NCBI GenBank assembly: GCA_045113315.1
Contig: JBGUIX010000006.1
Coordinates: forward strand, 168,756 to 232,755
From: Bacilli bacterium
GTDB taxonomy: Bacteria; Bacillota_I; Bacilli_A; RFN20; CAG-826
DNA: 64,000 nucleotides
Direction of reading: 5' to 3'
Part shown: positions 2,223-60,269 of the stretch, in pieces
Numbering within the stretch: the stretch's first letter is position 1
Layout: each line of letters begins with the position of its first letter
Notes under the pieces: model-generated
The model's input: only the letters and a program-made list of their open reading frames with translations
What the model was told of the DNA's origin: nothing
Database searches by the model: none
Made by a program: the position numbers and the translations under genes

Positions 2223-2228
2223 ATTTTT

Positions 2229-2424
2229 AGCCGTTGAGGAAGAGGAGTAATTATCTTTCTTAAAATAGAGAGTCGAGGATGGTGGAAGCTCGATATAAGG
2301 AAATAATGAAGGTCGCTTCGGAGGATAGTTGCCTAGCGAAAATAGGTTAATGAAGTGCGTTAGAAATAACGAATTAAGGTGGTACCGCGCTGATAGCGTC
2401 CTTAAAAATAGGGACGCTTTTATA
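2229..2424 (+). promoter_or_regulatory. T-box riboswitch leader of valS, with a terminator hairpin
   Basis: Canonical T-box sequence AATTAAGGTGGTACCGCG at 2372-2389. Intrinsic terminator AGCGTCC-N9-GGACGCTTTTAT at 2395-2424. Upstream stem-I-like hairpins carry a candidate GUC (Val) specifier in GAAGGUCGC. Confidence 0.75.
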
Positions 2425-5036: not shown

Positions 5037-5091
5037 ATTTTTGAACATTTTACCGATTAACCCCCCTATTTGTGATATAGGAGGGTTTTTT
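5037..5091 (+). promoter_or_regulatory. Conserved leader element, copy A (TTTTTGAACATTT...CCCCCCTATTTGTGATATAGGAGG-N7-ATG)
   Basis: Near-identical copies at 34820-34874 (+) and 59048-59103 (-), all at a fixed distance from an ATG. Contains the SD AGGAGG within a hairpin CCCCCCUAU/AUAGGAGGG followed by a U-run. Confidence 0.5.
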
Positions 5092-5277
5092 ATGAGAAAG
5101 ATCATTTTAACTAAAGAAGAATGTGATAACCAAAAGGTGGGAGAAGCGATTTCCCTAACAGCGGTGATGGCTATTGCGGCGATTGCCGTTATGGCGGTAG
5201 TTGTCTATCGTTTATTCATGTCTGGAAAAGGTGGTGCGACTATTCCAGGTGGATTTAAATTCTCATGGGCGGAATAA
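5092..5277 (+). CDS. Hypothetical 61-aa single-pass membrane peptide
   Basis: ATG 7 nt after AGGAGG. MRKIILTKEECDNQKVGEA, then a TM helix ISLTAVMAIAAIAVMAVVVY, then a Gly-rich tail. The TAA stop is 1 nt before the radC TTG start. Confidence 0.4.
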   Translation: MRKIILTKEECDNQKVGEAISLTAVMAIAAIAVMAVVVYRLFMSGKGGATIPGGFKFSWAE

Positions 5278-6039: not shown

Positions 6040-6130
6040 CGCCTCACTAGCTACAACCGCATAGAGAAGGTTTGCAAAACCTATTAAGGTTACCTTAATA
6101 GCGAGTCCTTAGTGAATCTAAAATAAGGAG
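6040..6130 (+). promoter_or_regulatory. Structured 5' leader of rplU (candidate L21 autoregulatory leader)
   Basis: Several nested hairpins (GGTTTGCAAAACC; AAGGTTACCTTAA; TCACTAG..CTTAGTGA) just upstream of the rplU RBS AAGGAGG. Confidence 0.3.
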
Positions 6131-16291: not shown

Positions 16292-18097
16292 ATGTTATTC
16301 GGCAAATACATCAATAAATATTATCTAAAATATGCGATTTTCTTCATTATTGGTATCGCCGCTTTAATACTAGTGGATGTGGCTCAGATATTTGTCCCAC
16401 AGTATCTAGGAAAGATTGTTGATATCTTAAGTAATGTTAAAGAAGCACCTTTAAACGCTGATCAGCAAAATCAGATTTTATATATGATTATTGCGACCAT
16501 TGTTATCGCACTCATCATGATGCTTGGCCGATTCTTATGGAGAATCACGATTTTCCATGCTTCTTTTAAGATTGAAGCTAATTTAAGAAAAGAGATGTTT
16601 TTAAAAGCTGAAAGATTATCTCAACGTTATTATCACACTAATAGTGTGGGGACGGTGATGGCGTGGTTTACTAATGATATTGAAACCATTCAAGAATTCT
16701 TTGGATGGGGAACTATTATGCTTGTTGATGCTGGCTTTTTAGCCATCTTAGTGATTGTCGAAATGTTCATATTAGAACCGATTTTATCTTTAGTAGCTAT
16801 TATCCCTATTTTATTAATCGCTTTATGGGGCGCACTCGTCGAGAAATTTATGTCAAAACGTTGGGAATATCGTCAAACTTCCTTCGATAATTTGTATGAT
16901 TTCTGTCAAGAAACATTTACTGGTATCAGTGTGATTAAAGCCTTTGTTAAAGAAAATCAACAATTGAAAGCTTTCGCTAAACTTGCCAGAAGAGATAAAG
17001 ATGTGAATGTTGATTTTGCGCGTGTATCAGTTTTATTTGATTCTTTGATTAATGCGATTATCGCTATCATATTAGCGATCATAATGGGTGTTGGTGGATA
17101 TTTTGTTTATGCTTACGTTACTAATAATCCAGTTGTTTTATTTGAACATGAAGTGACATTAAAACCAGGACAACTGATCACTTATGCTGGCTATTTTGAT
17201 TTATTAATTTGGCCGATGATGGCGATGGGCCATATCATCGCGATGAGAAGTAGAGCGAAAACTTCTTTAAAACGTATCACTCGTTTTTTAGATGAAGAAG
17301 AAGAGATTAAAGACCTTGAAGGTAGTGAAGAATTAAAAGATGTAAAAGGGAAAATCACCTTTAATCATTTTTCTTTCACTTACCCAGGAAGTAATAATAA
17401 AACCATCGATGATATTTCTTTAGAAATAAAAGAAGGAGAAACTATCGGTATTGTGGGAAGAATTGGCTCTGGTAAAACTACTTTAGTCAATTCCTTATTA
17501 AGACTTTATAACTTAGAAGAAAATTCTTTATTAATCGATGACAAAGACATTATGAAATGTAGCATTTCTTCGATTAGAAAAGCGATCGCTTATGTTCCAC
17601 AGGATAATTTCTTATTCTCTGATACCATCGAAAACAATATTAGTTTTTCTAAAGAGAATTTAGATGTTGATTTAATCAAACAAGGAGCGATATTCTCCGA
17701 TATCGATAAAGATATCTCCGATTTCAAACAAGGCTATGAAACAGTCTCTGGAGAAAGAGGAGTGACTCTTTCCGGTGGTCAAAAACAAAGAATTTCTATC
17801 GCTAGAGCTTATGTTAAAAAAGCTCCGATTATGATTCTAGATGATTCCGTTAGCGCGGTAGATGTAAAAACTGAAGAGACAATTTTAAAAAATATTGCCG
17901 AACAAAGAAAAGGCAAGACTACTTTAGTAGTGGCTTCTCGTATTTCTACAGTCTCTCATCTTGATAAGATTGTGGTTTTAGATAACGGCAAATTAGAAGC
18001 GTTTGGTTCTCACCAAGAATTATTAAAGATTTCACCAACCTATAGCAGGATGGTTTATTTACAAAAATTAGAAGAAGAAGTGAAAGGAGGAAATTAA
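16292..18097 (+). CDS. ABC exporter subunit (TMD-NBD), degenerate catalytic base
   Basis: Six-TM N-terminal domain. Walker A GRIGSGKTT, signature LSGGQKQR, Walker B IMILDDS (Asp instead of the catalytic Glu). Confidence 0.85.
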   Translation: MLFGKYINKYYLKYAIFFIIGIAALILVDVAQIFVPQYLGKIVDILSNVKEAPLNADQQNQILYMIIATIVIALIMMLGRFLWRITIFHASFKIEANLRKEMFLKAERLSQRYYHTNSVGTVMAWFTNDIETIQEFFGWGTIMLVDAGFLAILVIVEMFILEPILSLVAIIPILLIALWGALVEKFMSKRWEYRQTSFDNLYDFCQETFTGISVIKAFVKENQQLKAFAKLARRDKDVNVDFARVSVLFDSLINAIIAIILAIIMGVGGYFVYAYVTNNPVVLFEHEVTLKPGQLITYAGYFDLLIWPMMAMGHIIAMRSRAKTSLKRITRFLDEEEEIKDLEGSEELKDVKGKITFNHFSFTYPGSNNKTIDDISLEIKEGETIGIVGRIGSGKTTLVNSLLRLYNLEENSLLIDDKDIMKCSISSIRKAIAYVPQDNFLFSDTIENNISFSKENLDVDLIKQGAIFSDIDKDISDFKQGYETVSGERGVTLSGGQKQRISIARAYVKKAPIMILDDSVSAVDVKTEETILKNIAEQRKGKTTLVVASRISTVSHLDKIVVLDNGKLEAFGSHQELLKISPTYSRMVYLQKLEEEVKGGN

Positions 18098-18099
18098 TC

Positions 18100-19863
18100 G
18101 TGGCCGAAGATTTTGATAAGCTCATTGGTGATAAAAAGATCCCACATAAAATTATGTGGAAAAGAATGTTTACCTATGTCAAACCAGAAATGGGCTGGCT
18201 CATTTTAGCGTCATTTTTAATCTTAGTTAACATCGCGATTGATGTTTCCTTACCTTTATTCCTCTCTAAATTAACCGACAACCTACAGTCCGTTAATATT
18301 TCTTTGAAAGTTATCTTGATGATCGCCATTGGCTATTGTCTATTAGGTGTTATCGGACAGGTCTTCGTCTATCTAGAATCGATGATTTTACAAAGAGCTG
18401 GTCAAAAGATTGTTTATAACTTAAGAATGGAAGTCTTTGAACATATTGAAAACATGTCACAAGATCAATTCAATCAGATGCCTGTTGGCTCACTAGTGAC
18501 TAGAGCGGTATCTTATACATCATCTTTATCGGAATTATTCACGACGATTTTAGTGAACCTTATCAAGAACATTTTGATGATTATCGGGACTTATGGAATT
18601 ATGTTCTTTATATCCTGGAAATTATCCTTGTCGATGCTACCTTTTGTCGCGATAGTAGCGGTTATTTCATTCTTCTTTAGAAGAATAATTCATAAAATAT
18701 TCACTGAAGAAAGAAAAAATATCTCCGATTTAAATACCTTCTTAAACGAGAATCTTTCCGGCATGAAAATCATTCAAATTTTCAATCAAGAAACTCGTAA
18801 GGCCAAAGAGTTTGATAAGAAGAATGAACAATTGAGAAAGACTCGTTATAAAGTTCTTGTGGCCTTTGGTATTTATCGTCCACTTATTTCATTTATTTAT
18901 TTTTTAGCGATTGCGGTGACATTTTCCTTTGCCTTTAAGAGCTTAGTCAGTGCGGGTGTTATCGTGGCTTTCTATGTCTATTTATCAAGATTCTTTAACC
19001 CGATTCAAAATATCGCTGATCAACTTAACGGAATTCAAAAAGCAGTGACTGCTTCAGAGAGATTATTTAACCTTTTAGATGTTCCTCCAAAAGTGCTAGA
19101 TAAAAAAGACGCTATCGAGATAAATGAGATTAAAGGCAAGATTGAATTTAAAGATGTTTGGTTCTCCTATAAACCTGATGAATGGATTTTAAAAGGTGTT
19201 TCTTTTACGATTGAACCCAAACAAACGTGTGCATTTGTAGGTGCGACAGGAGCAGGTAAAACAACCATTCTTTCTTTAATCGTACGAAATTATGAAATTC
19301 AAAAAGGTCAAATCTTAATCGATGGTGTGGATATTAGAAATATAAAGATAAAATCTTTAAGAAAAGCCATTGGTCAAATGTTACAAGATGTCTTCTTATT
19401 CTCTGGAACAATCAAAGATAACATCACCCTTCATGACGATTCTTATTCTCTGCAAGAAATTAGAGAAATTTGTGAATATGTAAACGCTGATAAATTTATC
19501 GATAAACTTGACAAGAAATATGATGATGTAGTCATTGAAAGAGGGGAGAACTTCTCACAAGGTCAAAGACAATTGTTGTCGTTTGCAAGAACTGTTTTAC
19601 ATAAACCGCAATTACTGATTTTAGATGAAGCTACTGCTAACATTGATACAGAAACAGAATCTTTGATTCAAGAATCGTTAGAAAAGATGAAAAATATTGG
19701 AACAATGCTTATTGTCGCTCATCGATTATCGACGATTCAAAAAGCTGATCAGATTATCGTCTTACAGCATGGAGAAGTAATAGAACGTGGTAATCATCAA
19801 CAGTTACTTAAGAATCACGGATATTATTACAAACTCTATAAACTTCAGTTTGAAGAAAGATAA
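18100..19863 (+). CDS. ABC exporter subunit (TMD-NBD), degenerate signature
   Basis: Walker A GATGAGKTT, Walker B LLILDEAT, non-canonical signature FSQGQRQ. Confidence 0.85.
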   Translation: MAEDFDKLIGDKKIPHKIMWKRMFTYVKPEMGWLILASFLILVNIAIDVSLPLFLSKLTDNLQSVNISLKVILMIAIGYCLLGVIGQVFVYLESMILQRAGQKIVYNLRMEVFEHIENMSQDQFNQMPVGSLVTRAVSYTSSLSELFTTILVNLIKNILMIIGTYGIMFFISWKLSLSMLPFVAIVAVISFFFRRIIHKIFTEERKNISDLNTFLNENLSGMKIIQIFNQETRKAKEFDKKNEQLRKTRYKVLVAFGIYRPLISFIYFLAIAVTFSFAFKSLVSAGVIVAFYVYLSRFFNPIQNIADQLNGIQKAVTASERLFNLLDVPPKVLDKKDAIEINEIKGKIEFKDVWFSYKPDEWILKGVSFTIEPKQTCAFVGATGAGKTTILSLIVRNYEIQKGQILIDGVDIRNIKIKSLRKAIGQMLQDVFLFSGTIKDNITLHDDSYSLQEIREICEYVNADKFIDKLDKKYDDVVIERGENFSQGQRQLLSFARTVLHKPQLLILDEATANIDTETESLIQESLEKMKNIGTMLIVAHRLSTIQKADQIIVLQHGEVIERGNHQQLLKNHGYYYKLYKLQFEER

Positions 19864-34800: not shown

Positions 34801-34824
34801 AAAGTTGCTTCGGCAACTTTTTTT
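34801..34824 (+). terminator. Rho-independent terminator after deoB
   Basis: AAAGTTGC-TTCG-GCAACTTT + TTTT, running directly into motif copy B. Confidence 0.75.
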
Positions 34825-34874
34825 GAACATTTCGGCTTTTTCACCCCCTATTTGTGATATAGGAGGACTTTTAA
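34820..34874 (+). promoter_or_regulatory. Conserved leader element, copy B
   Basis: TTTTTGAACATTTCGGCTTTTTCACCCCCTATTTGTGATATAGGAGGACTTTTAAATG. Confidence 0.5.
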
Positions 34875-35435
34875 ATGGAAAAGTTTAAAGCAGAAAGAAA
34901 CTATAGCTACGATTATGGCAGTAAAGTAGCAATAAAGCAGTCAGGAATGAGAGAACAATTAGACTGGATAAAAAGGCAATTAGAATACGTTTCTTTTTCA
35001 GAACAGTATTATCTAAGATACGATTTAAAGAAAGGTGAGATTTACGAATTTGATTGGGGGATTAATGTTAACGCTGAATTCTCGAATAGACATTATGGAG
35101 TCGTTTTAGTGGATTCGGATGTCTTTAATCCCTTAGTAACTGTCTGCCCTTTAAAGACGAATCATGGATCATGTAACAAGAAAAGTGATGTAGATCTAGG
35201 AAATGTTGAATGCTTACGAACAAATAAACATACAATAGCAGTCATCAATCAAATAAGAACGATAGACAAGTTAAGGCTATACATGAAACGGGCTATTGGT
35301 TTAGCAGATTCAAACCCAATTTTTGAGAAAACTGAAAGTGAAAAACGAACGATAAATAGGTTAGAAGATGATAAGCTAAATATGATCATTGATGCCTATA
35401 AAGACTACCTTTCTGGAAATTCCGAAAATGGATAA
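34875..35435 (+). CDS. MazF/PemK/EndoA-fold protein with about 50-aa N- and C-terminal extensions; no adjacent antitoxin
   Basis: Core KKGEIYEFDWGINVNAEFSNRHYGVVLVDSD...PLVTVCPLKT...TIAVINQIRTIDKLRL parallels B. subtilis EndoA ([27 protein letters not shown]...ILLEQIRTIDKQRL). Confidence 0.7.
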   Translation: MEKFKAERNYSYDYGSKVAIKQSGMREQLDWIKRQLEYVSFSEQYYLRYDLKKGEIYEFDWGINVNAEFSNRHYGVVLVDSDVFNPLVTVCPLKTNHGSCNKKSDVDLGNVECLRTNKHTIAVINQIRTIDKLRLYMKRAIGLADSNPIFEKTESEKRTINRLEDDKLNMIIDAYKDYLSGNSENG

Positions 35436-35656
35436 GAGCGATGCATTAGTAGCAAATTAGTAGTTATTTTGGTAAATAGCCTATAAAAATTTGTGTGGAA
35501 AAGTACCCAAATTCAATGTGGGAATTTTAAAAACCGCAAGATACAAAATATAGAAAAATACGATATTATCTAATAAAAATATAAATAAGTTAACATAATA
35601 GAAATTATGCGAAGTAGGTATTTTATAGCGTTTTTCCTCTATTATTGTGTGGATAA

Positions 35657-35680
35657 CAAAAAAAGCACCTTTCGATGCTA
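35657..35680 (-). terminator. Rho-independent terminator for the yqe operon (minus strand)
   Basis: A7-AGCACC-TTTC-GATGCT on the plus strand, which is hairpin + U7 on the minus strand, 23 nt after the nadD-yqeK stop. Confidence 0.5.
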
Positions 35681-35702
35681 TTTATGTGATTCTGCTATTT
35701 TA

Positions 35703-36785
35703 TTATAAATATTGTTTAAAGCATTTAGAGGTTAACTCATTTTCTATCGATTTATTATGATTTAATAGGAATTCTTTGTTAGCTTTTAAAACAATTTTGA
35801 ATCCTTCCTCGGCATTGTTTTTCATTGCGGTTATTAAATCTGATGAGTCGAATCCTCTTGTTGGCTCGATTTTATCTGCTGCATAAATAATCTTGCCCAT
35901 TAATATCATGTTTGAATTGCCTGTAGCGTGAAATTCAATAGCTTCAAGCATATCTTTATCATCAACTTCAAACATTTTATTGGCTAAATATGCTCCTGCA
36001 AATTGATGATATGCGAATTTTGGTAAATCCTTATATTCACTAAAATGTTCGCAAACGATTTTGTATTGTTCTTCTAAAGGTATGTCTTTACCTAAATCAT
36101 GTAACAATCCAGCAAAATAATATTTTAGTGGTTTATCTAAATTATTTGAAACGGCTATCTCGTATGCTAATTTTGCGACGCTTTTAACATGTGATAGTCT
36201 ATGAGGGGTCAATATTCTGTTTAGCTCCACCATACCTGAATACAAATTATTTTCTACTATGTAGAAAAGAACCTCATCGGGTAATTCTAGACTCTTTAAT
36301 TCTCTAATTTTTGTGGACGAAACATCATAGTCATCTCCTAAAATAGGCATCATTTGATATTTTTTGACGTTTTCGTCATTAATCTGATGTCCCGGTCTTT
36401 TATAGAAGATGATTTTTGCGAGTTTTGATAATTCTTCCGCTTCTTTCCATCTATGAAATTCGTTCACTTGATCCGCACCGATAAGGTAAAAGATGTTATC
36501 CTTTGGATATTTTTCCTTCATATAGCGGATTGTATCGATGGAATAATTGATTTCTTTACTACTATTAAGTTCATAATCATCAATATGAAAATGTTTATGA
36601 CCCTTAATAGCGAGTTCTAACATTTTGATTTTATCTTCTCTAGGAGCGGAAGAATCTTTCCATACGGAAATACGTGCCGGAAGGAAAAATACGTCTCCAT
36701 CGAGCGCTTTTGCGGCTTTTTCGGCCATGTTGATATGACCGTTATGGACCGGATCGAATGCTCCACCGAAAATAATTCTATTCAT
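35703..36785 (-). CDS. nadD: Fused nicotinate-nucleotide adenylyltransferase NadD + HD-domain YqeK
   Basis: N-terminal half GGAFDPVHNGH (nucleotidyltransferase HxGH). C-terminal half an HD domain (LSHVKSV...LLHDLGK). Single 360-aa ORF. Confidence 0.8.
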   Translation of the reverse strand: MNRIIFGGAFDPVHNGHINMAEKAAKALDGDVFFLPARISVWKDSSAPREDKIKMLELAIKGHKHFHIDDYELNSSKEINYSIDTIRYMKEKYPKDNIFYLIGADQVNEFHRWKEAEELSKLAKIIFYKRPGHQINDENVKKYQMMPILGDDYDVSSTKIRELKSLELPDEVLFYIVENNLYSGMVELNRILTPHRLSHVKSVAKLAYEIAVSNNLDKPLKYYFAGLLHDLGKDIPLEEQYKIVCEHFSEYKDLPKFAYHQFAGAYLANKMFEVDDKDMLEAIEFHATGNSNMILMGKIIYAADKIEPTRGFDSSDLITAMKNNAEEGFKIVLKANKEFLLNHNKSIENELTSKCFKQYL

Positions 36786-57354: not shown

Positions 57355-57810
57355 TTATTTCTCCTTTGGAGGCAATATTTCATCCTGCAATTTAAACATC
57401 ACTTCTTCATCTTTTTTGGTCATATGATCATAACCGAGAAGATGTAATAAACCATGGACGAATAAGAAAGATAATTCTCTTCTTAATGGATGACCGTATT
57501 CCTTTGCCTGTTCTTTGGCTTTATCAATTGAGATATAAATATCTCCTAAAGAAACCGGACCTTTTTTGCTAAGAATTAGGTTTCTATCATCTTCTCCATC
57601 TAAAAAGGCGAAAGAAATGACATCCGTGGGTCGATCAACTTTTCGATATTCACGGTTTAGTTTATGAATAAATTCATTATCTACAAAAGTGACACTTAAA
57701 ATTGGGTCACATTTGAGTTTGAGGTGTTTGAAGGTTCTTTCAAGTAAGGAAAGATAGATATCTTCATATTCCTCATATCCGGGAATTTGGCTAATGAAAT
57801 CGAGTTCCAT
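57355..57810 (-). CDS. ybeY: rRNA maturation endoribonuclease YbeY
   Basis: HGLLHLLGYDH metal-binding motif. Confidence 0.85.
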   Translation of the reverse strand: MELDFISQIPGYEEYEDIYLSLLERTFKHLKLKCDPILSVTFVDNEFIHKLNREYRKVDRPTDVISFAFLDGEDDRNLILSKKGPVSLGDIYISIDKAKEQAKEYGHPLRRELSFLFVHGLLHLLGYDHMTKKDEEVMFKLQDEILPPKEK

Positions 57811-57844: not shown

Positions 57845-59047
57845 CTATTCATTTTCTTTTTGGCGTCTCATCCTATTACCGAGTTTGACTTTAACTTTGT
57901 TAAATTCATCGATGTCTTCGTTCATGTTCACAATCGCATCCATCGCTTTATATAAACTTAACGAAATACAGGAATAAAAAATGACATAAGGTGTTGATGA
58001 AATACCACATAAATGCATCGTTAGTAAGGCGGTCGCAATAATTAAACCAGCATAGATATAAGCGCTCGCTAAATTCATATAGCTATAATCGTAAGCTAAT
58101 TTGTGTAAATTATGTGCCTCTTCTTTAAAAGAAGATACGTCGCTAACACTATCTAAAGAATTCTCTTTGGCTTCAATTTGTGTTTTCTTGTTCTTTAAGA
58201 ATGGATTAACGACGAATAAATCGAATAGAACCAAAACTAACGGAACAACCACTAGCAAAGCATTTCTTCGATCATTTAATAATATTAAGACCACTAAACT
58301 AATCGAAGTTAAAATCAATAAGACATAATGAAGTGGGCTAGATAATGATAATTTCTTAAATTGTTCAAACCTAAATAGATAATCTTTTAAATGATCATTA
58401 GGCACCAATTCTTCTTTGAAGAAATAATCATCTAGTTTCTTCATCATGTTATAGCTTATCGCCCTTAAGAGTAATTCGAACAAAATCGCCCCTGCTAAGA
58501 ATATGAAAGGAACATAAATCGGTGTGCCGTCTTTCACAAAATAAACCGCTAGTAAAACTAAGCCCACTATTAAGGCTTCCATAAACCCTAATAGGATGCG
58601 ACTGGTTAAAGATAATGGATTAAAACTTTGATATGGACATTTCCTCTCATTATAATCATCGATCATTAGTCCAGTTCCATCCCATATAGAAATAAATTTC
58701 TTTAACGGCATGGATGTCTTTCCTTTACTAGGATCGAGGTAAAAGACGCGATTAAACTTCACTCCTGTCACTAGAACTGCGTGTTTAGCGTCATTTTCAA
58801 GGCTTAAGGAAAGAATTAATGGAAAGGATGTTTCTTTACCTAACTCATCTTTTTCCTCCACTTTAAAGCCTTTTAAACTGAGCCCATATTCATAAGCGAT
58901 TTCTGTTAAGTCGGTAAATGAATATAGACCATGATTTTCGTCCTGCGGTATGAACAAGTAATTCTTATCCTTGTTTAGATTAGCGAGTATCATCTTTAAA
59001 CAAGCAAATCCGCAGTCATCTTTTTGAATCTGTGGGATATAAAACAT
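57845..59047 (-). CDS. Orphan peptidase-C39-domain protein fused to a 5-6-helix membrane domain; no ABC ATPase
   Basis: N-terminal QKDDCGFACLKM (C39 Cys), AKHAVLVTG (His), YLDPSKG (Asp), then hydrophobic helices. No Walker or signature motifs. ATG at 59047 sits 7 nt after AGGAGG of motif copy C; the ORF-track start at 59197 reads through the motif and the dnaJ terminator. Confidence 0.7.
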   Translation of the reverse strand: MFYIPQIQKDDCGFACLKMILANLNKDKNYLFIPQDENHGLYSFTDLTEIAYEYGLSLKGFKVEEKDELGKETSFPLILSLSLENDAKHAVLVTGVKFNRVFYLDPSKGKTSMPLKKFISIWDGTGLMIDDYNERKCPYQSFNPLSLTSRILLGFMEALIVGLVLLAVYFVKDGTPIYVPFIFLAGAILFELLLRAISYNMMKKLDDYFFKEELVPNDHLKDYLFRFEQFKKLSLSSPLHYVLLILTSISLVVLILLNDRRNALLVVVPLVLVLFDLFVVNPFLKNKKTQIEAKENSLDSVSDVSSFKEEAHNLHKLAYDYSYMNLASAYIYAGLIIATALLTMHLCGISSTPYVIFYSCISLSLYKAMDAIVNMNEDIDEFNKVKVKLGNRMRRQKENE

Positions 59048-59103
59048 AAAATCTCCTCCTATATCACAAATAGGTAGGGGAAAAGCCAAAATGTTCAAAA
59101 AAA
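59048..59103 (-). promoter_or_regulatory. Conserved leader element, copy C (minus strand)
   Basis: Reverse complement reads TTTTTGAACATTTTGGCTTTTCCCCTACCTATTTGTGATATAGGAGGAGATTTTATG. Confidence 0.5.
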
Positions 59104-59119
59104 TTTTTGCAAAAAGAAA

Positions 59120-59137
59120 GAGACTCATAGGAGTCTC
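59120..59137 (-). terminator. Terminator hairpin at the dnaJ stop (bidirectional)
   Basis: GAGACTC-ATAG-GAGTCTC flanked by A5 and T6; overlaps the dnaJ stop codon. Confidence 0.7.
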
Positions 59138-60269
59138 ATTTTTTAAACATCTTTTTAAACTTGGAGAACAAGCCTTCATCTTTTCCGCGTGTATCACGGA
59201 GTTTTTCTAATAGCTCTTTCTGTCCTTTGCTTAAGGAAGTTGGCACTTTGATGTTGAGTTTAATATATTGATCGCCAGGTTTTCCAGTTCTTAAATCCTT
59301 AACGCCACAGCCCTTCATTCTTAAGATTTGTCCAGGCTGGCTTCCAGAAGGAATGGTTAAGGTCATATCTCCATAGACAGTCGGAACATCAACTTTAGTT
59401 CCTAAACAAGCATCGACAAAGTCGAGTGGGATTTCTAAAGAAATATCATTACCGTCTCTTAAGAAATAATCATGTGGTTTGACTAAGATTTCAAAATATA
59501 AGTCACCGTTTGGTCCACCATTAATACCTCTTTCCCCGTTACCACGAGAAACGATTTGTTGCCCATGGTTTATACCAGCCGGGATATGAACTTTGATGTT
59601 CTTTTTCTTATGGATATATCCTTTGCCTGCGCAATCAGGACATTTATTTTTAATCGTTTTTCCTTTGCCACCACAGGATGGACATATTTCTTGGCTGGCA
59701 ATTGAGCCAAAAAGACTTTGTCTTTTTACACTTACATAGCCCTTACCACCACACTGGCTACAGGTCGAGATATCGCTCGCGGATTTTGCGCCGCTACCAT
59801 GGCAAGTAGGACATAATTCATCCACTTCAATTGGGACTTCAATATCTTTACCATTAATCGCATCCATAAAGTCGATACGGATACGTTTGATTTCATCGTT
59901 ACCACGACGTGGTTGATTAGGATTAGCTCTAGCCTGACCTCTTCCACCGGTGAAGAAAGAATTGATAATATCGCCTAAATCGCCAAAGCCACCGAAACCA
60001 CTGAAGCCACCTTGGAAGGGGTTAGCACCAGGATTTCCGCCAGCTTGTTCGAAGGCTGCGTGACCAAATTGGTCATAAGCACTTCTTTTTTGATCATCAT
60101 AAAGAATATCGTATGCTTCTTGGATCTCTTTGAACTTGGCTTCATCGCCCGTTTCTTTATTATCTGGGTGATATTTTTTGGCTAATTTACGATAAGCGCT
60201 TTTGATCTCATCTTTACTGGCACTTTTATTAACACCAAGTATCTCATAGTAATCTCTTTTTTCTGCCAT
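59136..60269 (-). CDS. dnaJ: Chaperone DnaJ
   Basis: J domain (YYEILGV...HPD), Gly/Phe region, four CxxCxGxG zinc motifs. ATG at 60269 with a GAAAGGAG RBS. Confidence 0.9.
   Translation of the reverse strand: MAEKRDYYEILGVNKSASKDEIKSAYRKLAKKYHPDNKETGDEAKFKEIQEAYDILYDDQKRSAYDQFGHAAFEQAGGNPGANPFQGGFSGFGGFGDLGDIINSFFTGGRGQARANPNQPRRGNDEIKRIRIDFMDAINGKDIEVPIEVDELCPTCHGSGAKSASDISTCSQCGGKGYVSVKRQSLFGSIASQEICPSCGGKGKTIKNKCPDCAGKGYIHKKKNIKVHIPAGINHGQQIVSRGNGERGINGGPNGDLYFEILVKPHDYFLRDGNDISLEIPLDFVDACLGTKVDVPTVYGDMTLTIPSGSQPGQILRMKGCGVKDLRTGKPGDQYIKLNIKVPTSLSKGQKELLEKLRDTRGKDEGLFSKFKKMFKK

Follow-up and report, generated by a model that had tools for sequence, protein, structure and literature searches.

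A C39 peptidase fused to a PCAT-type membrane domain without an ATPase, encoded beside ybeY in uncultured gut and rumen Bacilli

The gene and its two-domain product

The window analysed here is the whole 64,000-nucleotide stretch of contig JBGUIX010000006.1 (assembly GCA_045113315.1, Bacilli bacterium), and its main subject is a gene located between dnaJ and ybeY, the product of which joins an N-terminal C39 peptidase to a six-helix transmembrane domain (TMD) of the kind found in ATP-binding cassette (ABC) exporters, with no nucleotide-binding domain (NBD). The minus-strand open reading frame (ORF) as listed extends from 57845 to 59197, and the supported start lies further in, at ATG 59047, where GGAGG is positioned 8 nt upstream and where the sequence M[FY][YF][IV]PQ, which opens every homologue, begins. 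A previous sequence-only reading of this DNA had placed the end of the feature at 59103, thereby taking in an upstream element of ~48 nt that is noncoding. Public gene catalogues give the protein as 427-450 amino acids (aa), often as 444, with a start within the 3' end of dnaJ and a reading frame that crosses the dnaJ terminator (59048-59197, minus strand); these versions are over-extended, the correct length being 400 aa. In the window TGA serves as a stop codon, which agrees with PMC7301438, and the only source name found for proteins of the family is 'hypothetical protein [Bacilli bacterium]'. The features discussed are collected in Table 1.

Table 1. Positions of the features described in the text (window coordinates unless a locus is named).
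Feature	Position	Strand	Basis or remark
Coding sequence, C39-peptidase/ABC-type-TMD protein, 400 aa	57845..59047	-	Stop TAG 57845-57847; start from ribosome-binding site and N-termini of homologues
Cytoplasmic C39 double-glycine cysteine peptidase domain, aa 1-132	58652..59047	-	Pfam, PDB sequence matches, invariant catalytic residues
Catalytic codons	Gln6 59030-59032, Cys12 59012-59014, His89 58781-58783, Asp105 58733-58735	-	
Six-helix TMD, type-IV ABC-exporter fold, aa 147-392	57872..58609	-	AlphaFold2, Foldseek, hhalign, PDB profile, conservation, dN/dS
Upstream cis element	59048..59102	-	TTGAAC box, C-rich tract + TAT, loop, ATA + Shine-Dalgarno; three near-identical copies in the window
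Three copies of the element	5037-5091, 34819-34874, 59048-59102	+, +, -	Before the 61-aa peptide, PemK-like and C39-TMD genes, respectively
20-mer within the element	59055-59074	-	CCTATTTGTGATATAGGAGG
dnaJ intrinsic terminator	59120..59137	-	7-bp stem, then T-run; divides dnaJ from the C39-TMD transcription unit
ybeY	57355..57810	-	34 nt past the C39-TMD stop, no terminator between
61-aa single-TM peptide gene, candidate partner or substrate	5092..5277	+	Same upstream element; putative link
PemK/MazF-like gene	34875-35435	+	186 aa; PF02452, E 1.7e-7
Two adjacent ABC exporter half-transporters	16292-18097, 18154-19863	+	PF00664 + PF00005
T-box leader upstream of valS	2225-2406	+	Rfam, above gathering threshold
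L21 leader upstream of the rplU-prp-rpmA operon	6045-6119	+	Rfam, above gathering threshold
yqfC-/yqfD-like sporulation-gene homologues (PF06898)	L031 4752-5934; L035 5035-5958; L036; L037; L039; L044 2326-3445		Deeper family loci

The N-terminal domain is matched by Pfam Peptidase_C39 (PF03412) over residues 3-131, with an E-value of 7.5e-19 (68 bits; cutoff 22), and a phmmer search of the PDB sequences retrieved the peptidase domains of PCAT1, LahT and ComA. The NCBIfam models of peptidase-containing ABC transporters (PCATs) are matched only at their N-terminal parts, far under their cutoffs. The sequence-only reading had positioned the catalytic Cys, His and Asp correctly (Cys12 in QKDDCGF, His89 in AKHAV, Asp105 in YLDPSKG), whereas its Q-x4-C signature has to be replaced: the conserved glutamine is Gln6 and not Gln8 of QKDDC, and the resulting Q-x5-C spacing of the oxyanion glutamine equals that of Gln21/Cys27 in LahT (PMC6363468). 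All four residues are invariant in 65 aligned homologues, down to 27% identity to the query. Because of this invariance the peptidase is not a decoy, a concern that had been raised for the N-terminus; the domain is a genuine C39 domain, and a catalytically dead decoy was ruled out.

The same invariance bears on the proposal that the domain does not cleave at all and acts as a substrate-binding, chaperone-like, receptor (as the C39-like domain of HlyB) or sensor module. No substrate was found, and C39-like domains (CLDs) with non-catalytic roles are known from type 1 secretion system ABC transporters (PMC6363468), among which HlyB has the same fold at the same N-terminal position on a type-IV TMD (7sgr_A). 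CLDs, however, are non-cleaving and lack the catalytic Cys, and HlyB possesses an NBD, whereas Cys12 of the present family is invariant, along with Gln, His and Asp, in 65 sequences of at least 27% identity, and no NBD is present. A non-proteolytic function is therefore regarded as very unlikely. The stand-alone C39 peptidases FapD and FilB (soluble/periplasmic) resemble the family in carrying a C39 domain without an ABC ATPase, but they lack the six-helix TMD, and their models (NF058616 and NF050078) score only 16.2 and 20.6 bits here against cutoffs of 330 and 475, respectively.

In the AlphaFold2 model, for which the 65-sequence alignment served as input (predicted local distance difference test score 88.6; predicted TM-score 0.79), the C39 alpha/beta domain (residues 1-132) is followed by a linker and by six long helices, predicted at residues 147-169, 178-209, 238-258, 260-298, 304-347 and 352-392, with a short extra helix at 220-234. 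The chain ends ~8 residues past the sixth transmembrane helix (TM6). Of the 'five or six' helices counted earlier from the sequence, the model upholds the six and not the five. The best Foldseek matches in the PDB are full-length PCAT1 chains, across ~460 aligned columns (8vp5_B, E 1.4e-14; 6v9z_A, TM-score 0.60), with HlyB ranking after PCAT1, while the TMD on its own matches the PCAT1 core, MsbA, CydDC and BmrA at E ~1e-4. Furthermore, hhalign of the family against eight Bacteroidota PCATs from the same scan returned a probability of 99%, with query residues 4-288 corresponding to PCAT residues 13-337; this match covers TM1-TM4 and the motif of intracellular loop 1 (ICL1), where DYLFRFEQFKK lies opposite GDLxQRxxDHKRIE. 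In hmmsearch, the family profile was aligned in one stretch to PCAT1 residues 16-349. Pfam ABC_membrane and ABC_tran have no match in the protein, the latter agreeing with the reported lack of Walker A/B and LSGGQ motifs. Foldseek, hhalign and the family profile all concur with the earlier description of the protein as the first two-thirds of a PCAT/ComA-type exporter whose NBD is missing. The protein stands outside the PCATs by their defining NBD, yet it is clearly PCAT-derived.

Compared with PCATs, the TMD is ~65 residues shorter, the loss being mostly in the TM2-ICL1-TM3 region, while the TM4-TM5 hairpin retains helices of ~40 residues that form a long cytoplasmic extension. The tip of this hairpin (ICL2), the site matching coupling helix 2 of ABC exporters, is the least conserved part and is indel-prone, with an identity of 0.43. 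These features are relevant to the question of whether the protein is still part of an ABC transporter, with its ATPase encoded elsewhere as a separate polypeptide. With a PCAT NBD as the query, tblastn gave no match in any of the 46 family loci, each covered to 6 kb in both directions, and in the window it found only two ordinary ABC half-transporters (16.3-19.9 kb). The ICL1 motif (KLDxxFF ... Y..R.E.YK) is still alignable to PCAT ICL1, and only a fraction of each genome is visible, both of which would suit a split PCAT. Split type-IV exporters are rare, however, ICL1 is truncated and the chain ends right after TM6; a trans-acting NBD is unlikely because none is linked in the 46 loci and because the ICL2 tip, where coupling helix 2 would be expected, is degenerate. 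Such a split arrangement is, in our view, improbable.

The family is large and uniform. A word-indexed search returned 98 clusters at 90% identity, all of which carry PF03412 only; apart from a 242-aa fragment and a few gene calls that are too long, they measure 390-445 aa. When 1.84 billion representatives were searched exhaustively with a profile, 357 clusters (50% identity) reached E<1e-30; of the best 150, nearly all are 380-415 aa long and align over their full length, and about a dozen are shorter and apparently partial. Ten residues are invariant in the 65 aligned members (Q6, C12, G13, H89, D105, P106, F170, D206, K231 and E295), and the TMD positions conserved in >90% of them include P180, E191, N258, Y319, F357, Y358, K386 and N391. 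Identity per alignment column stands at 0.63 in the peptidase domain and at 0.51 in the TMD; three predicted extracellular turns, YFxKDxTPIYxP, LLNDxxN and SSxPYIIFY, are among the best-conserved parts of the latter (up to 0.60). The ratio of non-synonymous to synonymous substitution rates (dN/dS), calculated between the window and family locus L001, is 0.076 for the whole gene (0.10 for the peptidase and 0.062 for the TMD), and the neighbouring ybeY and recO give 0.075 and 0.061. Both domains are under purifying selection, which constrains the TMD no less than the peptidase.

Genomic setting and the shared upstream element

Homologous loci returned by the genome scan numbered 54, and a goat-omasum metagenome-assembled genome (MAG), that of Bacilli bacterium RGIG2675, encodes a protein ~97% identical to the one in the window. 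The stretch ybeY-cdd-era-recO-glyS comes directly after the gene in more than 30 species-level MAGs (labelled Bacilli, Erysipelotrichaceae or Bacillota), and the adjacency to ybeY persists in lineages in which Era is only ~50% identical. Names among the MAGs, such as CAG:449, hint that the clade may belong near RFN20/Erysipelotrichales within the Bacilli. On the other side, dnaK-dnaJ lies directly upstream in the closer lineages, whereas in deeper lineages ~4 kb separate dnaJ from the gene and contain rsmE-like, mtaB-like, L32 and deoC genes (assigned by N-terminal similarity, with a Pfam check for deoC only). In six deeper loci, yqfC-yqfD homologues lie directly upstream of the C39-TMD gene (Table 1). 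The YqfD homologues are short (~300-310 aa), covering profile positions 1-251 of 379, and in L031 and L036 the C39-TMD gene stays beside yqfCD although ybeY is not downstream.

The corresponding order in Bacillus subtilis is dnaK-dnaJ-...-yqfC-yqfD-phoH-pgpH-ybeY-...-cdd-era-recO, with about a dozen genes separating dnaJ from ybeY, and relative to it the C39-TMD gene occupies the phoH/pgpH position. Because the conserved synteny mirrors this order, the gene is ancestral to this clade of uncultured Bacilli from gut and rumen and vertically inherited, not inserted, and the tight dnaJ-gene junction seen in the window arose secondarily by compaction. Two earlier claims consequently do not stand. 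The gene had been regarded as an orphan inserted at this site, yet it adjoins ybeY in more than 30 MAGs, including lineages in which dnaJ is 4 kb away; and the dnaJ/ybeY junction had been described as conserved in Firmicutes, yet in B. subtilis the two genes are about a dozen genes apart. The observation that the gene begins right after the dnaJ terminator did hold, an intrinsic terminator being present directly upstream. Downstream, ybeY is probably co-transcribed with the C39-TMD gene.

A decaying remnant of a pseudogenised transporter, or a recent insertion, might account for the missing NBD and for a gene placed right after a terminator. Its length is uniform over the 357 clusters, however, its synteny is conserved over deep divergence and its GC content is not atypical. 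The possibility of a frameshifted NBD downstream had been raised from the sequence, and tblastn finds no such remnant; because of this, together with the uniform length and the dN/dS of 0.076, the gene is not a frameshifted pseudogene. The remnant was rejected on these grounds, and we consider decay or insertion to be extremely improbable.

The ~48 nt preceding the gene (TTTTTTGAACATTTTGGCTTTTCCCCTACCTATTTGTGATATAGGAGG) are found in near-identical form at two further sites in the window. The 20-mer listed in Table 1 occurs there in three exact copies where none is expected, which bears out the statement that the gene has its own copy of a shared leader. Across 667 kb, comprising the window and the loci, a strict motif (CC[CT][CT]TA-N4-11-TAGG[AG]GG-N-start) precedes the C39-TMD, 61-aa peptide and PemK-like genes, with one further match belonging to a spurious 11-codon ORF. 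A looser motif is located upstream of the peptide gene in three more species and of the C39-TMD gene in ~30 species. The PemK-like gene has an N-terminal extension of ~50 aa and is apparently monocistronic, with the element, and no antitoxin ORF, upstream.

The C-rich tract is complementary to the Shine-Dalgarno (SD) sequence and the length of the loop varies from 3 to 14 nt, on account of which an RNA hairpin is favoured over an operator of fixed spacing. At least 75% of the SD sequence is paired in 76% of the loci, and the mean minimum free energy per locus is -9.3 kcal/mol, whereas the genes nearby range from -1.8 to -5.4, except for dnaJ, whose value of -10.7 is presumably due to a hairpin in the dnaK-dnaJ intergenic region upstream of it. 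The interpretation of the element as an SD-sequestering hairpin is nonetheless unproven, since covariation in the MAFFT alignment is not significant (129 of 500 shuffles), RNAalifold returns no consensus structure and the fold z-scores are modest (-0.8 to -2). Rfam contains no family for the element, and the exact 20-mer has no match in the metagenome scan. If the TTGAAC box is read as part of a sigma-70 promoter, no acceptable -10 hexamer is present at 17±1 nt from it.

A peptidase without a motor

PCATs are the standard textbook example of proteolysis tied strictly to export powered by ATP, and no description of an NBD-less PCAT-type protein was found in the literature searched. Previous work on PCAT1 has established that the substrate is bound and cleaved in the ATP-free, inward-facing state, that cleavage is ATP-independent and requires the transporter core, and that, once ATP is bound, the peptidase detaches and the pathway becomes open to the outside (PMC6959990). 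In our profile alignment, family residues ~222-293 correspond to PCAT1 residues 269-342, a stretch bounded by two residues of the lateral opening, which is lined by PCAT1 positions 268-342 (PMC6959990); the invariant K231 lies inside this stretch and the invariant E295 just beyond its end.

With moderate confidence, we propose that the protein is an inner-membrane PCAT derivative that has lost its ATPase, is kept in the ATP-free, peptidase-docked state and cuts a Gly-Gly-type site. An ancestral PCAT would have lost its NBD while retaining the C39 peptidase and the six-helix TMD. Because PCAT1 cleaves in the ATP-free state, an NBD-less homodimer would be fixed permanently in the cleavage-competent state, and the protein would serve as a membrane-docked endopeptidase that needs no ATP and cuts at the cytoplasmic face, the end of the cargo being offered to the TM cavity. 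The retained TMD would activate and position the peptidase and form the cargo site. An N-in topology is suggested by the lack of a signal peptide together with the PCAT precedent. Finally, the protein is conserved under selection across the clade without a motor, and its function would therefore be independent of ATP.

Several points weigh against this proposal. Dimerisation, topology and activity are all properties that we infer. A regex search for ORFs with double-glycine leaders, covering the window and 61 loci within 6 kb, produced only spurious matches, so that the earlier remark that no such peptide gene is adjacent extends to the family loci, none of which holds a credible one. The searches for NBDs and substrates span the window and up to 6 kb around the family loci, which is part of each genome. 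Moreover, the conserved polar residues and extracellular turns of the TMD suggest a role for this domain beyond that of a scaffold for the peptidase.

This last point leads to the question of whether the protein is a complete ATP-independent exporter, in which the NBD-less TMD dimer would release the cleaved peptide outward, driven by the proton-motive force or by facilitated diffusion. Outward release is a serious rival because the constraint on the TMD equals that on the peptidase, because all three turns at the outer face are conserved and because TM2 contains the near-invariant Glu191, at position 14 of a predicted 32-residue helix; the long cytoplasmic extension that the TM4-TM5 hairpin retains in the AlphaFold2 model is also consistent with it. 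A precedent is provided by SbmA (SbmA/BacA, SLiPT family), an NBD-less structural relative of ABC TMDs that is reported to be a proton-driven secondary peptide transporter (PMC8442886, PMC13316013). The present protein, however, has no match to Pfam SbmA_BacA at E<=1, and SbmA is absent among the top 50 Foldseek matches. SbmA is furthermore an importer, so that the direction of transport would be opposite, and it belongs to Proteobacteria and has no peptidase domain. A shortened ICL1 and a poorly conserved ICL2 tip also speak against export, and what the protein shares with SbmA is the architecture, an NBD-less ABC-type TMD. Complete export is a tentative alternative that we think rather unlikely.

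The docked, motor-free peptidase that we favour retains much of the PCAT plan. It has in common with the PCAT/AMS transporters PCAT1 of C. thermocellum, ComA, LahT and LagD the Q-x5-C ... H-x15-D layout of the N-terminal C39 domain and the order of peptidase followed by six-helix type-IV TMD, with a structural match over the whole chain and profile homology through TM4. It differs from them in its missing NBD and shorter TMD, in the absence of an adjacent GG-leader or accessory gene, and in its vertical inheritance within a housekeeping operon, PCAT genes being located in bacteriocin or pheromone islands. A large, selected family that keeps the peptidase and TMD and has discarded the motor represents a natural experiment on the contribution of the transporter core to cleavage and on the ATP-free movement or hand-off of peptides by an ABC-type TMD. 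Its place in a housekeeping operon across abundant uncultured rumen and gut Bacilli points to a conserved processing event in their cell biology.

A candidate peptide and other features of the window

The 61-aa single-TM peptide encoded at the start of the window shares the upstream element with the C39-TMD gene. Members of its family are 65-87% identical and are always encoded between valS and radC; databases call them 'hypothetical protein', and Pfam and NCBIfam yield only weak, TM-driven matches. Their tail, YRLFxSxKG[GS]xx[IV]PGG[WF]KF[ST]W, is nearly invariant, and its PGG, K, F and W residues do not vary at all. Judging by its charges, the peptide would adopt an N-out/C-in topology, with the GG-containing tail at the cytoplasmic face. 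The peptide gene carries the element in five species, in two of which the C39 gene was examined alongside and also carries it, and both genes seem to be present on at least five contigs. Against a pairing, the -7/-12 hydrophobic helix that canonical leaders possess (PMC6363468, PMC6959990) is missing from the tail. The peptide had earlier been dismissed as a poor candidate: this judgement is justified in that it has no canonical GG-leader, and less so in that the gene is very conserved and shares the element. As a substrate or partner of the C39-TMD protein the peptide is a lead only, and a doubtful one.

Equally doubtful is the extended form of this idea, a two-gene ATP-independent module in which the docked peptidase would cut ...KG[GS]xx[IV]PGG|[WF]KF[ST]W[AE] and the TMD would release a Trp-rich signal of 6-7 residues, either by the proton gradient or by passive diffusion. 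If true, the module would constitute a housekeeping-encoded, PCAT-derived analogue of AgrB/AgrD. AgrB is a membrane-embedded, polytopic, ATPase-less cysteine peptidase that matures the AgrD autoinducing peptide and helps to release it. The analogy is functional only, as the family protein is not homologous to AgrB, has no Pfam AgrB match and differs in fold and catalytic arrangement.

Elsewhere in the window, the two half-transporters hold its only NBDs; they are unlinked to the C39 gene and probably form a heterodimer. Rfam places a T-box leader before valS and an L21 leader before the rplU-prp-rpmA operon (Table 1). At ~35500-36000, the orientation of the genes flips from plus to minus, the GC skew changes sign and the cumulative skew is maximal. 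This convergent arrangement looks like a switch of the replication-terminus type, although gyrB and gyrA are located just past it, at 38.9-43.5 kb.

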